A DNA stretch of 64,000 nt. Origin: Octopus vulgaris (Eukaryota). The notes under the pieces were generated by a model, which made no database searches, had not been told where the DNA came from, and saw only the letters and a program-made list of their open reading frames with translations. The stretch spans positions 11,222,001 to 11,286,000 of the forward strand of contig OX597837.1 of assembly GCA_951406725.2 (NCBI GenBank), written 5' to 3'. The position numbers were made by a program, and so were the translations under genes. This document shows, in pieces, positions 498 through 63,522 of this stretch. Numbering within the stretch: the first letter of the stretch is position 1; each line of letters opens with the position of its first letter.

Positions 498-1422
498 TTA
501 TACATGTATACATGTATATATATATGTATACATATATACATGTATACATGTATATATATATAGATATATATATATACATGTGTATATATATATACATACA
601 TATATATATGTGTGTATATATATATATATATACATGTATATATATATACACATGTATATATATATATACATATATATACATGTATATATATATATTTATA
701 TATACATGTATATACATGTTCGTTTAGATGTTTTTGTTATTATGTTTTCGTTTCTCATTGTGTTCAACGTGTTTTTTGATGTCCCGTACCCATATATGCA
801 TGTATATATACATATAGATGTAGGTATGTACATATATGTATGTATATATGCATATATTTATATATTATTTATATTATATGTTCGAACGCCACGCATCCTT
901 TTCTAAGTAAGTATATTTATATATATATATATATATATCTGGATATGTCGGTATATGCATATGTATACTAGGAAATACATATAAACGTGTGTGTACGTGT
1001 GTGTGTGCCAGCATGCTTATATGTGTGCGCGTGCTTGTATGTTTCTCTTTGCGTATGTGTGAGTGTGTCTGTGTGTATATGCGCGCGTGTGTGTGTTTGT
1101 GCACATACACCATATAAATTGGATTTTTTCCTCCTCAACGTTGGCCTTCTTAATTCTTCACCATACGAAGCTACAAATTTTGTTTTCTCAATATTTCATT
1201 CTTAATATTTCACTTCATCGCATATTCCTTCCTCTTCGCAATTTCTCCGTAATTGGGTCTCTTTAGGCTTAGATACTTCTAGAATGAAAAACACAGTTCC
1301 CCCTCTTCTAATTAATTCTTATCTAACCGTAGCCCTAACTGTATTAATTAAAATTTTCAAACTGAAGAAAGAATACTCAAAAATACTATAATACCATTTC
1401 CTTCTACGAATGCTTATCGGAT

Positions 1423-2022
1423 GGCGGTTAACTGGCAGAATCGTTAGCACGCCGGGCGAAATGCTTAGCGGTATTTCGTCTGCCGTAACGTTCTGAGTTC
1501 AAATTCCGCCGAGGTCGACTTTGACTTTCATCCTTTCGGGGTCGATAAATTAAGTACCAGTTACGCACTGGGATCGATCTAATCGACTTAATCCGTTTGT
1601 CTGCCCTTGTTTGTCTCCCCTGTGTTTAGCCCCTTGTGGGTAATAAAGAAATAGGTATTTCGTCTGCCGTTACGTTGTGAGTTCAAATTCCGCCGAGGTC
1701 GAGTTTGCTTTTCGTCCTTTCGGGGTCGATTAAATAAATATCAGTTACGCACTGGGGTCGATGTAATCGACTTAATCCGTTTGTCTGTCCTTGTTTGTCC
1801 CCTCTATGTTTAGCCCCTTGTGGGTAATAAAGAAATAGGTATTTCGTCTACCGTTACGTTGTGAGTTCAAATTCCGCCGAGGTCGAGCTTGCTTTTCATC
1901 CTTTCGGGATCGATTAAATAAATACCAGTTACGCACTGGGGTCGATGTAATCGACTTAATCCATTTGTCTGTCCTTGTTTGTCTTCTCTGTGTTTAGCCC
2001 CTTGTGGGTAGTAAAGAAATAG
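1423..2022 (+). mobile_element. SINE family B (tRNA-like head, Meta/Sauria-like central domain), tandem array of three 184-bp units
   Basis: B-box GTTCAAATTCC; central GCCTTTCATCCTTTCGGGGTCGATAAATTAAGTACCAG; units start at 1470, 1654 and 1838 (GGTATTTCGTCT), and a degenerate fourth start is at 2028. The domain name is from recall. Confidence 0.85.
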
Positions 2023-2190
2023 AAATAGGTATTTCGCCTGTCTTTATGTACTGAGCTAAAATTCCGCCGCGTTCGATTTGACTTCGATGAAATTATTTGC
2101 AGTCAAGCACTGGGGTCTATGTGGTCGACATATCCCTCCATCCTCCACCTCATCCCCCAGATTTCATGCCTTGTGCCTATTGTACAAAAG

Positions 2191-2264
2191 ATTCTATAAT
2201 ATTTGGTTATTAGAGGGCAATGAATCTAGCAGAATCGTCCTCTAATAACCAAATATTATAGAAT
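2191..2264. repeat. Perfect 26-bp inverted repeat with 22-bp spacer
   Basis: ATTCTATAATATTTGGTTATTAGAGG (2191-2216) is the reverse complement of 2239-2264. Confidence 0.9.
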
Positions 2265-2379
2265 ATAAGCATTTTTCCGGCGTGCTAACGATTTGGCCAG
2301 TTCACCTCCCCCTGACAACGATGCAAAGCGCATTGTGACTAGCGATGTATTACAAGATTCGATAGCCATGTGAATCATG

Positions 2380-2447
<68 letters not shown>

Positions 2448-2480
2448 TGATCAAAATAAAAACATGATGCGAAGGATTCA

Positions 2481-2558
2481 GCGGTACATATGTTTCGGGC
2501 CTTTATTAGACAGATTTATAACAATGCATAATGTATGTCTGTGGCCTTCTTCAGCCGC
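2481..2558 (-). ncRNA. Type I hammerhead ribozyme, extended stem II
   Basis: Minus strand: GCGG-CUGAAGA-AGGCC...GGCCC-GAAA-CAUAUG-UA-CCGC. Stem I is GCGG/CCGC and stem III is palindromic. It lies in a ~200-bp island (2446-2642) between two (TA)n tracts. Confidence 0.88.
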
Positions 2559-2642
2559 GCACAACAGCTTCCACAAGGACATGTGTACACCACCAAACGG
2601 TATACACAGGTGCTTATAATTATCAAGTACTCACCCCGAATT

Positions 2643-2944
<302 letters not shown>

Positions 2945-3049
2945 ACACACATATATGTATGTATATATGCGAGTAAGTTTATATACATACGTGCTTACAT
3001 GCATGCCAGCAAGTATGTATGTGTATTTATAAATTTGAATATATATATA

Positions 3050-3118
3050 TATACACGCATATATATATAGATGCAATATATATATATATATATATATACA
3101 CGCATATATATATAGATG

Positions 3119-3152
<34 letters not shown>

Positions 3153-3940
3153 GCATATATATATAGATGCAATATATATATATATATACACGCATATATA
3201 TATAGATGCAATATATATATATATATATATATATATACACGCATATATATATAGATGCATATATATATATATATATATATATACACGCATATATATATAG
3301 ATGCAATATATATATATATATATACACGCATATATATATATAGATGCAATATATATATATATATATATATATATACACGCATATATATATAGATGCAATA
3401 TATATATATACTAGCAGTATCGCCCGGCGTTGCTCAGGTTTGTAAGGAAATAACTATAAAGCATTTTTAGAGAGTTATAGCCAAAAAATAGCAAAAAAAT
3501 GGAAAAAAAATGATGGTAAATTTTTTTTGAGGGATAAAAAGGTGGAGTTGCGTCCCCTAGACGGTCTGTGGTTTGGGTTTCAGATTCTCGACCCCATGTC
3601 GAATTTATCGATCTTTTTCAGAACTGGGGGAACTTTTCAAAATTTTCGCTGCGTTAGTTTTGAATTATGACATTGGGCTATGTGTGTGTCAAGTTTCATC
3701 AGAATCGGTTGAAAGCCGTGGTCAGAGTGAGGGTACGAGAAAACAGACACACAGAAAACGCACAGACAAACTGCCGTTTATATAGAGAGAGATATATACA
3801 CGCATATATATATAGATGCAATATATATATATATATATACACGCATATATATATAGATGCAATATATATATATATATACACGCATATATATATAGATGCA
3901 ATATATATATATATATATATATACACGCATATATATAAAT
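3050..3940. repeat. Minisatellite, unit ACACGCATATATATAGATGCA(TA)n, interrupted by a Helitron
   Basis: Repeated units at 3050-3410 that resume at ~3795-3940. Confidence 0.85.
3411..3792 (-). mobile_element. Non-autonomous Helitron
   Basis: Minus strand starts TC after A and ends with an imperfect CCCG/CGGG-type hairpin plus CTAG before T. No TSD. The 3' ~120 bp matches 4860-4985. Confidence 0.8.
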
Positions 3941-3945
3941 AGATG

Positions 3946-3978
<33 letters not shown>

Positions 3979-4072
3979 AATGATGTCTTCGTGTATGTAT
4001 GCATGTGTATAAATAAATCAGAGACAGAAAATGGAAAAAAATGAGATTCTTTATTCAAATGCACTTCGTAAT

Positions 4073-4118
<46 letters not shown>

Positions 4119-4586
4119 TACATACAAAATATATACATAAATATATAAATATATACATATATACATACATATATACATATATGTACACACACACATGAAA
4201 TATATATGCGCATGTGTGTGTATGTAAGCATGTATCCCCTCAACCCCAAACTAAAATATCGATATTGCATGGCACCAGAAAGGGAATAGATATCATCAGA
4301 AAGTGCTGGCACCATTTTGATGTTTTAGACGAATATATATGAATTAGGATATCAAACATCTCAATAAATCATTCATATACACACGCGCACACACACACAC
4401 ACACACACTAGCGAGCACACACACATACACGCACACACAAAGGCTTACATCACGTCAAAACGGTAGAGGAGTAGGGGCCGAAACCGGACGTGGTTCCTCT
4501 CGATGATGTCTTGAGCTAACTGGATCCTATAAAGGAGCTGTTGTGGTAGCAGACCACGAAACACGGTTGAAATTCCTCAAAGCTAA

Positions 4587-6362: not shown

Positions 6363-6412
6363 TTATATATATATTTACAAAAAAAAGAAGATAAATTTTA
6401 ATTTTCTTAGAA

Positions 6413-6460
6413 ATTTTACATATTTCGGTTCTTCTTGAAAAAACGAACCTTATCAAAAAT
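6413..6460 (-). ncRNA. Type I hammerhead ribozyme, U3-A8 core variant
   Basis: AUUU-UUGAUAA-GGUUC...GAACC-GAAA-UAUG-UA-AAAU. Confidence 0.7.
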
Positions 6461-6589
6461 ATTTTATAAAGTTAAGTGTAATAAAAAGTTCATAATTGTA
6501 AAATATTTCATAAAATTAAGCGTAGTAAAAAAGTTCATAATTGTAAGAAACAATTATGAACTTTTTTATTACACTTAACTTTATAAAAT

Positions 6590-6637
6590 ATTTTTGATAA
6601 GGTTCGTTTTTTCAAGAAGAACCGAAACATGTAAAAT
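6590..6637 (+). ncRNA. Type I hammerhead ribozyme, U3-A8 core variant
   Basis: AUUU-UUGAUAA-GGUUC-(13 nt)-GAACC-GAAA-CAUG-UA-AAAU, with palindromic loop 3 CAUG. Confidence 0.75.
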
Positions 6638-6683
6638 TTCTAAGAAAATTAAAATTTATCTTATATAGTGGCGTTTTCAAACT

Positions 6684-11537: not shown

Positions 11538-11650
11538 CATTATAATTTATACATCTCGAAACAAACCGATAGAAATTTGGGACCAATACGGTAATAACGG
11601 ATTTTTTAGAAATTTCTATCGGTTTGTTTCGAGATGCATAAATTATAATG
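11538..11650. repeat. 41-bp inverted repeat in a (TA)n-flanked island
   Basis: 11538-11578 vs 11610-11650, one A/G difference. Confidence 0.88.
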
Positions 11651-12077: not shown

Positions 12078-12128
12078 AGCTTCCTGAAGATTTCTCTTGA
12101 ATGAAACAGTTCTAGTCCTGTAGAAGCT
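12078..12128 (+). ncRNA. Type I hammerhead ribozyme
   Basis: AGCUUC-CUGAAGA-U.UUC-UCUU-GAA.U-GAAA-CAG-UUCUAGUC-CUG-UA-GAAGCU. Stem I is 6 bp; predicted cut after 12122; (TA)n begins ~85 nt downstream. Confidence 0.9.
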
Positions 12129-21820: not shown

Positions 21821-21856
<36 letters not shown>

Positions 21857-21857
<1 letters not shown>

Positions 21858-22201
21858 CAAATAAGAAAATGGAGAAACAATTTAGTTGGTTCATTCGCTT
21901 TAGAATATTAGAATATTGATTTATTTATTTATTTAACAATAACGAGAACCTTAATAACATGCATATATACATTATAATTCAATACATATAAGATAAGAAT
22001 ACAATTATAAAAATCTTAATATAAATTATTGGAATCATTAAGGTTTTTATAATTGTATTCTTATCTTATATGTATTGAATTATATTGTATATATGTATGT
22101 TATTAAGGTTCTCGTTTTTGTTAAATAAATAAATAATTCAACATTCTAATATCCTGAAGCTGATGAACCAACTAGTGTGTTTCTCCATTTTCTTATTTGT
22201 A
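21857..22201. repeat. Older long inverted repeat (~165-bp arms) next to (TA)n
   Basis: 21857-22020 vs 22037-22201 with several mismatches. Confidence 0.88.
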
Positions 22202-24079: not shown

Positions 24080-24446
24080 ATCAACTAATGAGGGTGAGAA
24101 AGTTGGATACTAATTTAATAGTACATCCATTTAACACCAAGTGGCTTAGTGCATAAAAACCCGGATTACGATACATTTTATACATAAATATAAGAGAGTA
24201 AATATAAGAGAGTAGACCATGTGGTCTACTCTAGCACGGCTGAAACCCAGCGGATCTATTTTTAGTGCTAGAGTAGACCACATGGTGGTTACTCTCTTAT
24301 ATATATATATATATATATATATATCACAATCAAGGAACGGCCATAATAGGCCATTCACCCACTAGAAATAACAGCCAAAGCTTCAACCGCAAAATAACAT
24401 TAATTCCGCAAACCAGGAGAAAATTAAAAAAACATTTACCCTGTAA

Positions 24447-24551
24447 TTTCTTATACGATGCACCGTTTCATCTATTGTTTAATGGTAAACCAACCTGATT
24501 AAATTAAATCAAGCCAATCTTCCATAGGCCGATAGATTCGTCAGTAAGAAA
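24447..24551 (-). ncRNA. Type I hammerhead ribozyme (mirror copy)
   Basis: Reverse complement of 24732-24836. Confidence 0.9.
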
Positions 24552-24731
24552 ACAGCCAGATCGGAACAGATATTTTCACGAGGCACTTCTCTCCCTGCCT
24601 CGGCAATATCTGACCTAAAATTTTCAAATCATCGCACTCGCGCCAAATTTATCGGCAGCAAATAAATATAAGCCGCCGATTCCATTAGGGAGAGAAGTGC
24701 CTCGTGAAAATATCTGTTCCGATCTGGCTGT

Positions 24732-24836
24732 TTTCTTACTGACGAATCTATCGGCCTATGGAAGATTGGCTTGATTTAATTTAATCAGGTTGGTTTACCA
24801 TTAAACAATAGATGAAACGGTGCATCGTATAAGAAA
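24732..24836 (+). ncRNA. Type I hammerhead ribozyme, long stem II
   Basis: UUUCUUA-CUGACGA-AUCUAU...AUAGAU-GAAA-CGGUGCAUCG-UA-UAAGAAA; 7-bp stem I; predicted cut after 24829. Confidence 0.92.
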
Positions 24837-25056
24837 TTACAGGGTAAATGTTTTTTTAATTTTCTCTTGGTTTGCGGAATTAATGTTATTTTGCAGTTGA
24901 AGCTTTGGCTGTTATTTCTAGTGGGTGAATGGCCTATTATGGCCGTTCCTTGATTGTGATGTTGAACTTATAAATGGTCTATGACTATTTAATCTTTTCC
25001 CACTAGGCCGCTGGTGGCAAAAAAATTCTACAAAATTTTTTGCCACCCTATATTGA

Positions 25057-25103
<47 letters not shown>

Positions 25104-25107
<4 letters not shown>

Positions 25108-60425: not shown

Positions 60426-60724
60426 ATAATTCGAGACAAAACCACTATTTTAAAACCAAACAAGGAAAGACTTAATCAATACATAAAATTTTAATATAAA
60501 TTAAATAAACCGCCACTACAAATGTTTCATGTCTGCTCCGACAATCTTCAGGTGGATTTTCGATCTTCTAATCAGTATCAAATTTTGATACTGATTAGAG
60601 ATCGAAAATCCACCGAAAATTGTCGGAGCAGACATGAACATTTGTAGTGGCGGTTTATTTAATTTATATTAAAATTTTATGTATTGATTAATTCCTTGTT
60701 TGGTTTTTTGGTTTTGTCTAATTA
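60426..60724. repeat. Spacerless palindrome centred at ~60583 between (TA)n tracts
   Basis: CTAATCAGTATCAAA-T-TTTGATACTGATTAG centre; the right arm carries several small deletions. Confidence 0.9.
60513..60555 (-). ncRNA. Type I hammerhead ribozyme
   Basis: CCAC-CUGAAGA-U.UGUC-GGAGCA-GACA.U-GAAA-CAUUUG-UA-GUGG; the mirror copy at ~60610-60650 has a damaged core. Confidence 0.88.
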
Positions 60725-60752
60725 TGGTTTTAAATATATATATATTTATGTC

Positions 60753-60903
<151 letters not shown>

Positions 60904-63418: not shown

Positions 63419-63522
63419 TCACAACGATCGTTTCGACCCATTTTGTATCAATCCCTCGCGAATGAGATAATGTACAACTGGTTGTGATGCATCACTCGGT
63501 ACAGATGTGTCTCGTCAGGTGA
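63419..63522 (-). ncRNA. Type I hammerhead ribozyme, long stem II
   Basis: UCAC-CUGACGA-GACACAUCUGUA...UACAAAAUGGGUC-GAAA-CGAUCG-UU-GUGA. Confidence 0.9.

Follow-up and report, generated by a model that had tools for sequence, protein, structure and literature searches.

Head-to-head insertions are an established feature of PLEs. The available text of PMC3846280 gives head-to-head as the commonest PLE arrangement, with a tail on one of the inverted pLTRs, and that of PMC8557442 agrees. For the inverted arms, self-priming on an antisense template has been proposed (PMC3846280), and both accounts, in the portions available, treat the origin of these arms and the retention of introns as open questions (PMC8557442, PMC3846280). 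In the available account of PMC11167929, purified PLE protein acted on both strands, cleaving and extending each, and its two internal start sites delimit the tail. Non-LTR retrozymes are a further described type of hammerhead-bearing repeat, and the term "inverted" is absent from the main text of PMC7229834. We found no paper on PLE twin priming or on spliced PLE copies in the literature searched; the subscription PLE reviews of 2005-2006 lie outside it, as do the supplements of PMC11167929 and PMC8557442 and those of the bioRxiv preprint cited below, which may bear on both points.

The window analyzed here is a 64,000-nt stretch of Octopus vulgaris DNA (contig OX597837.1) in which a sequence-only reading had placed four palindromes of four unrelated families, each with its hammerhead ribozymes pointing outward. 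Self-BLAST after masking of microsatellites recovered all four palindromes at the places given, and the reference sequences of the families, named A (24 kb), B (6 kb), C (48 kb), and D (60 kb), share no BLAST similarity. In every palindrome the left arm carries the ribozyme on the minus strand and the right arm on the plus strand, as judged by a descriptor scan together with mirror copies. The type I hammerhead descriptor, which requires the core CUGANGA/GAAA/UH and stems I-III, had 10 matches in the window, compared with 0-1 per shuffle in 10 shuffles. At 24 and 48 kb both arms have an intact hammerhead, on the minus strand in the left arm and on the plus strand in the right; at 60 kb only the left (minus-strand) copy is intact, and at 6 kb only the right (plus-strand) copy. 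The scan did not detect the mirror hammerhead at 6 kb (~6413-6460, minus strand), in which a C-to-T change turns GAAAC into GAAAT. The right arm at 60 kb is damaged, as the earlier reading had it, with 6 gaps compared with 0-1 in 48 other arms, an excess that is possibly a consensus error. A stricter descriptor detected none of the four loci, and no hammerhead family is among the Rfam matches listed (150 of 324), which are microsatellite-driven miRNA and similar matches.

Table 1 Features of the four palindromes and of a related insertion in the window
Feature	Position	Strand	Remark or basis
Family B head-to-head pair, pLTR of RT+GIY-YIG PLE	6388..6682		
Minimal type I hammerhead, U3/A8 core	6590..6637	+	descriptor scan
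(TA)n target, left flank of 24-kb locus	24288..24322		sequence
24-kb short-end arm, family A	24323..24686	-	outer end at monomer position 384
Type I hammerhead, 68-nt stem II insert	24447..24551	-	predicted cut 24454
24-kb long-end arm, family A	24687..25064	+	monomer positions 112-488
Type I hammerhead, weak stem III	24732..24836	+	predicted cut after 24829
24-kb tail, 104 nt between short and long end	24961..25064	+	in every tandem-array monomer
Hairpin in 24-kb tail, just before long end	25013..25047	+	also in each monomer
(TA)n, right flank of 24-kb locus	about 25062-25105		sequence
Diverged family C relative, head-to-head without palindrome	40195..40446		
Family C copy ending at long end	47578..47835	-	hammerhead 47727-47815
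Mirrored microsatellite core centered on (TA)n, non-family sequence	47836..48091		
132-nt family C copy identical to left arm	48092..48223	+	hammerhead 48112-48200
Family D long-end arm	60341..60588	-	hammerhead 60513-60555, tail ~60341-60417
Family D short-end arm, 6 small gaps	60578..60754	+	

The arms differ in length in all four palindromes, and not in three as first described; at 6 kb the right arm is ~20 nt longer and adjoins another repeat. The tails had been called unique. They are instead family sequence, present in the parents or monomers of the 24-, 6-, and 60-kb families, and in the 6-kb and 60-kb parents they correspond to the stretch from the ribozyme to the ORF start. The hairpin reported at the end of the 24-kb tail is present (Table 1), and a role for it in initiation is a guess. 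Within the 48-kb locus, 47595-47654 was considered as a separate forward segment and rejected, as it is the tail on the minus strand. In the family C relative near 40 kb, a long-end piece in inverted orientation adjoins a hammerhead-region arm, and the two overlap by ~10 nt. Four of the ten descriptor matches lie outside the palindromes, at 2481-2558 (-), 12078-12128 (+), 34421-34506 (+), and 63419-63522 (-). A further palindrome at 21856-22201 terminates on both sides in TA repeats, and its right arm contains a CTGATGA motif; the descriptor scan found no canonical type I hammerhead there, and it is possibly another PLE-type insertion. Small inverted-repeat elements without a scanned hammerhead occur at 11538-11650 and 24199-24305, the second looking MITE-like, and a long AT-rich trinucleotide tract (54476-55966) dominates inverted-repeat scans.

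Family A occurs as a tandem repeat with an exact period of 488 nt and one hammerhead per unit. By the sequence criteria of PMC7229834 and a 2026 preprint (bioRxiv 10.64898/2026.07.22.740005), as far as their available texts go, it is a non-LTR retrozyme, its non-coding status being judged from monomer size. The predicted fold of the monomer is -144 kcal/mol, compared with -109 +/- 6 for shuffles, and two arrays (L153 and L036) contain seven or more exact 488-nt units. Family B corresponds to the pLTR of its parent, a broken PLE in which a GIY-YIG domain (Pfam E=3.8e-7) is present and RT and DKG motifs were recognized by eye in broken frames. The family D parent has an intact 822-aa ORF with YRDD and YIG motifs, RIKWK in place of RWK, DKT, a CxCx5C linker, and a C-terminal CxxC, together with a canonical hammerhead and (TA)n targets; a Pfam search of this ORF gave no match. 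Families B and D are classed as EN+ PLEs by the RT and C-terminal GIY-YIG of their parents, and family D is assigned by its motifs to the Hydra clade.

Two direct hammerhead-bearing pLTRs flank an ORF at L157 and at L249/L281, and families B and D have an inverted 5'-truncated copy at the 5' end, with one end tailed. The intact Hydra-type element, which includes an Asn-rich stretch, is located at about 107.955-107.986 Mb of G000:C6 (L249/L250/L279/L280) within an inverted duplication that has arms >10 kb and includes the flanks; both of its outer ends are short. A second near-full family D element (L281, G000:C6:135272600-135282500) has a 781-aa frame, a short end on one side, and an inverted long end on the other. 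Family C comprises a shared unit of ~1.6 kb with no ORF of at least 120 codons inside it at six loci; its ends may be those of a PLE passenger, and no parent element was found at the nucleotide level.

In all, 187 distinct loci were mapped, 45 of family A, 30 of B, 60 of C, and 52 of D (duplicates removed, L097 and L253 by hand). These derive from the best 40 of 1190-4417 first-look candidates per query, so the scored loci are young and biased. Within this set, 103 of the 187 loci have a divergent 5'-to-5' (head-to-head) junction and none is purely convergent; two of the 103 carry an extra convergent fragment 20-40 nt beyond the finished end. Five further family D loci were head-to-head when wider sequence was examined. 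Family D junctions alone were counted genome-wide, and among the matches listed all 35 opposite-strand neighbor pairs of exact junction patterns within 10 kb are divergent, in partial overlap with the mapped loci. Arm orientation is therefore non-random, as the sequence-only reading had anticipated, and its statement that PLE insertions often carry inverted partial terminal repeats matches the head-to-head pLTR arms described in the available text of PMC3846280. The palindrome architecture is an integration footprint of PLEs, already published and ordinary for these elements, and is here found in new family members.

Each family has two outer ends, both adjoining (TA)n, which forms most insertion flanks: 384 and 488 in A, ~1170 and 1200 in B, 1471 and 1554-1590 in C, and ~180 and 257 in D (reference coordinates), here called short and long. 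Inverted loci of family A have one short and one long end in 28 of 33 cases and an odd end in the other 5, with no long/long or short/short locus. The same holds for 10 of 14 inverted loci in family B, where one is short/short (L115). Among 20 family D loci picked by their paired inner junctions only, and thus blind to the ends, 18 are short/long, one is cleanly short/short (L292), and in one another insertion interrupts the tail. Several odd ends are exceptions to this rule, of which we found no published count in the literature searched. Single-arm copies, too, most often end at the short site (13/16 in B).

The palindromes at 6, 24, and 60 kb are head-to-head insertions of a PLE or its passenger, and we consider it probable that in each two target-primed cDNAs of sense RNA were joined by microhomology. 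The PLE enzyme would cleave a (TA)n target on both strands, and sense RNA of one donor, probably a single molecule, would serve as template for two primed cDNAs. Of the two start sites, which lie 30-120 nt from each other on the downstream side of the hammerhead, one cDNA would use the short and the other the long. Each cDNA would run 5'-ward and stop on its own, after which the cDNA ends would pair via a few bases and complete each other's second strand, presumably with strand displacement where the arms overlap. Both outer ends would then be 3' ends of the element, so the ribozymes would point outward and the tail would be present on one arm only.

The sequence-only reading had proposed a snap-back or template-switch step instead. 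In a snap-back, as in self-priming, one cDNA would fold back and copy itself, and the copy would be trimmed at the short site; a self-primed copy must therefore sit within its template arm. This is not the case at 24 kb, where ~90 nt at the 5' end of the left arm are absent from the right arm and the tail of the right arm is absent from the left. Arms are non-nested in 13 of 28 family A loci, and the inner-end phase of this family is broad, with only 6/28 within 30 nt. With tail-blind queries, the short arm reaches further 5' in 10/14 loci of B (some of these non-nested assignments rest on 5-10 nt), 11/15 of C, and 5/9 of D. The corresponding counts in tail-selected sets are 5/9 in C and 2/23 in D, and the 21 of 23 tail-selected D loci with nested or equal arms would suit a snap-back or an inherited palindromic master. 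So would the hot spot of family D, an internal mini-palindrome at which 28 of the 80 spliced arms stop. Likewise compatible with a snap-back are tiny fold-backs at L086 and L059, the 53 rare variants common to both arms in family A, and the microhomology at junctions. However, tail-only inverted pieces (L275, L278, L128, and the 40.2-kb locus) overlap the other arm little, if at all, the prevalence of the short site among single-arm ends also tells against a snap-back, and the spliced copies and A>G bias described below indicate sense RNA. With neither arm copyable from the other in many loci, a snap-back alone fails as the general cause, and we regard it as unlikely.

The other half of that proposal survives as the joining of two cDNA ends by microhomology. 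Among clean family A junctions, 14/18 have microhomology of at least 2 nt, compared with a chance expectation of 18%, and 11 of 29 A junctions have filler or a nearby variant. The junctions of B and C are mostly too degraded for scoring (1 clean each). Junctions vary between loci in family A, and some recur in family D.

Divergence between arms bears on whether the palindromes are assembly or chimeric-read artefacts. Arm-to-arm compared with between-locus divergence is 0.55% vs 1.8% in A, 3.6% vs 4.5% in B, 6.2% vs 6.7% in C, and 0.95% vs 0.78% in D, with little or no arm homogenization in B, C, and D; the two arms of the 24-kb locus differ at 2 of 265 compared nt. Because divergence tracks family age, the arms age independently, which argues against fold-back artefacts and against strong conversion. 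In family A, however, the lower divergence between arms than between loci and the 53 shared rare variants speak for a common donor of both arms. One-of-each fixed ends and non-nested arms are, moreover, impossible from fold-back reads. An artefact would account for the identical arms at 48 kb and for the excess of indels in the 60-kb right arm, and no contig spanning a window junction is among the matches listed (four runs, with the 24-kb family at high depth), a result that is uninformative. We judge this explanation very improbable overall, and for three families the palindromes are not assembly artefacts.

The 48-kb locus looks secondary, and the earlier supposition of one mechanism for all four palindromes is not supported. 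Its arms have 0 differences in 132 nt, compared with the family C average of 6.2%, and the palindrome mirrors ~260 nt of flanking microsatellite, which is non-family sequence. Both arms have a common 5' junction with the microsatellite that is unique in the genome; no parent copy with this junction was found genome-wide. This palindrome quite likely arose later, when an older single insertion was duplicated by a fold-back, with an artefact as the distinctly less likely but not negligible explanation. An integration origin keeps some plausibility, its right end being 12 nt away from the short site. Duplication after insertion, or copying of whole palindromes from palindromic masters, would suit this locus with its identical arms, mirrored flank, and unique junction, as well as the family D locus within the flank-including inverted duplication and the recurrent D junctions. 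Applied to the other palindromes, it conflicts with A junctions that differ between loci, with fixed outer and variable inner ends (the opposite of a truncated palindrome copy), and with flanks that are unmirrored at 6, 24, and 60 kb, so that as a broader account it seems quite improbable.

Spliced copies provide evidence on the template strand. In the family D parent, a 1306-nt GT-AG intron separates exon 1 from the hammerhead exon. Short D copies, including that of the window, are without this intron, and a tested copy matches the parent at 100%; the 60-kb long-end arm is the spliced 5' end of a Hydra-type PLE RNA, with its exon junction at 60565/60564. Genome-wide, 276 exact D junctions are spliced and 45 unspliced. 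None of the spliced arms (n=80, a few of them maybe counted twice) extends >33 nt upstream of the junction, where an Inr-like TCACT is located. Among the matches listed, which cover contigs 1 to part of 6 and 100 of the 276 spliced places, paired arms are spliced/spliced in 25 cases, unspliced/unspliced in 5 (one a secondary duplication), and mixed in 0, a concordance with a probability of 1.2e-5 under random pairing. This points to a sense RNA template from one donor, although separate donors, some spliced and others unspliced, could produce the same concordance without a single shared molecule if their activity fell at different times.

A second indication comes from variants present in all copies of a family A locus, where 11 sites show A>G and 3 show T>C (P=0.006; 14 sites, polarized by majority). 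Single-copy A variants lack this bias (7 and 14), and it is absent in B, C, and D. The excess fits editing of sense RNA before copying, with the palindromes not implicated. The long arrays L153 and L036 have a template-borne excess of A>G, suggesting that edits made in RNA became fixed in the DNA. Together with the spliced copies, the A>G bias speaks, for these families, against self-priming on an antisense template as put forward in the available text of PMC3846280.

Double priming on sense RNA may extend beyond these palindromes. Tentatively, double priming on a single sense RNA could be the normal way in which PLEs integrate, each strand of the target being tied to a different internal start. 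Since the start sites are located just behind the 5' ribozyme, spliced mRNA would on this tentative reading yield only short "strong-stop" copies of the 5' end, and full elements would come from unspliced read-through RNA only. If true, double priming would explain the head-to-head arms and one-sided tail without an antisense template, along with the abundance of short hammerhead repeats and the retention of introns in PLEs. The young copies allow sense-strand double priming to be tested directly against antisense self-priming, by way of the intact-ORF Hydra-type family, hundreds of spliced copies, matched splice states, and the short/long rule. Spliced 5'-end copies with matched splice states thus make both PLE template polarity and intron retention testable.

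The outward orientation had also been thought to let a transcript form long double-stranded RNA and mask its own ribozyme, whose activity we infer. In silico, the 24-kb palindrome, taken over its whole plus strand, forms a single hairpin (-536 kcal/mol) in which the probability of the hammerhead stems is zero. A 120-nt ribozyme fragment is predicted to form stems I and II and hardly stem III (P=0.04). Masking is thus supported in models of a read-through transcript, but the isolated 374-nt arm is also without a predicted stem I. As modeled, masking would follow from geometry only and be limited to read-through from outside. Judging from family D and the available text of PMC2377424, the element's own start is likely at the center and points outward, so its own transcripts would exclude the antisense arm. 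The hairpin of the read-through transcript would suit selection maintaining the orientation, either to silence the ribozyme or to make double-stranded RNA. However, transcripts begun at a central start would exclude the antisense arm, and the youngest families are already biased, so the insertion mechanism suffices; we regard selection as highly unlikely.

The EN+ PLEs, in the available texts of PMC3846280, PMC8557442, and PMC2377424, have the same head-to-head inverted arm with a tail on one pLTR, the same pLTR hammerhead, (TA)n targets, Inr-like TCACT, and an intron near the 5' end. The tails of A, C, and D are longer (77-120 nt, compared with the 30-40 nt given for published EN+ PLEs), and many copies are spliced, whereas published PLEs are described as intron-retaining. 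Family D has the single ORF, DKT, CxCx5C, CxxC, hammerhead, and (TA)n targets of the Hydra clade as described in the available text of PMC8557442, and differs from that description in its Asn-rich stretch, its 1306-nt intron, and a unit of ~6.2 kb, most Hydra elements being <3 kb. The in vitro account of Poseidon PAc (PMC11167929, as available) reports the same two starts downstream of the hammerhead, extension of both strands, and AT-rich targets; it leaves the inverted arms unexplained and the start sites unassigned to strands. Like the animal non-LTR retrozymes in the available texts of PMC7229834 and bioRxiv 10.64898/2026.07.22.740005, family A consists of tandem, non-coding, low-GC monomers with type I hammerheads. 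Its 488-nt monomer exceeds the 150-450 bp quoted for that group, and its arrays are mostly two back-to-back runs with PLE ends, unlike those of the described retrozymes. LINE-1 twin priming is said to use two primers, one per target strand, and to produce an inverted join with microhomology. Compared with that process, the insertions described here have fixed internal priming sites and no poly(A), and their arms often overlap, which results in palindromes.
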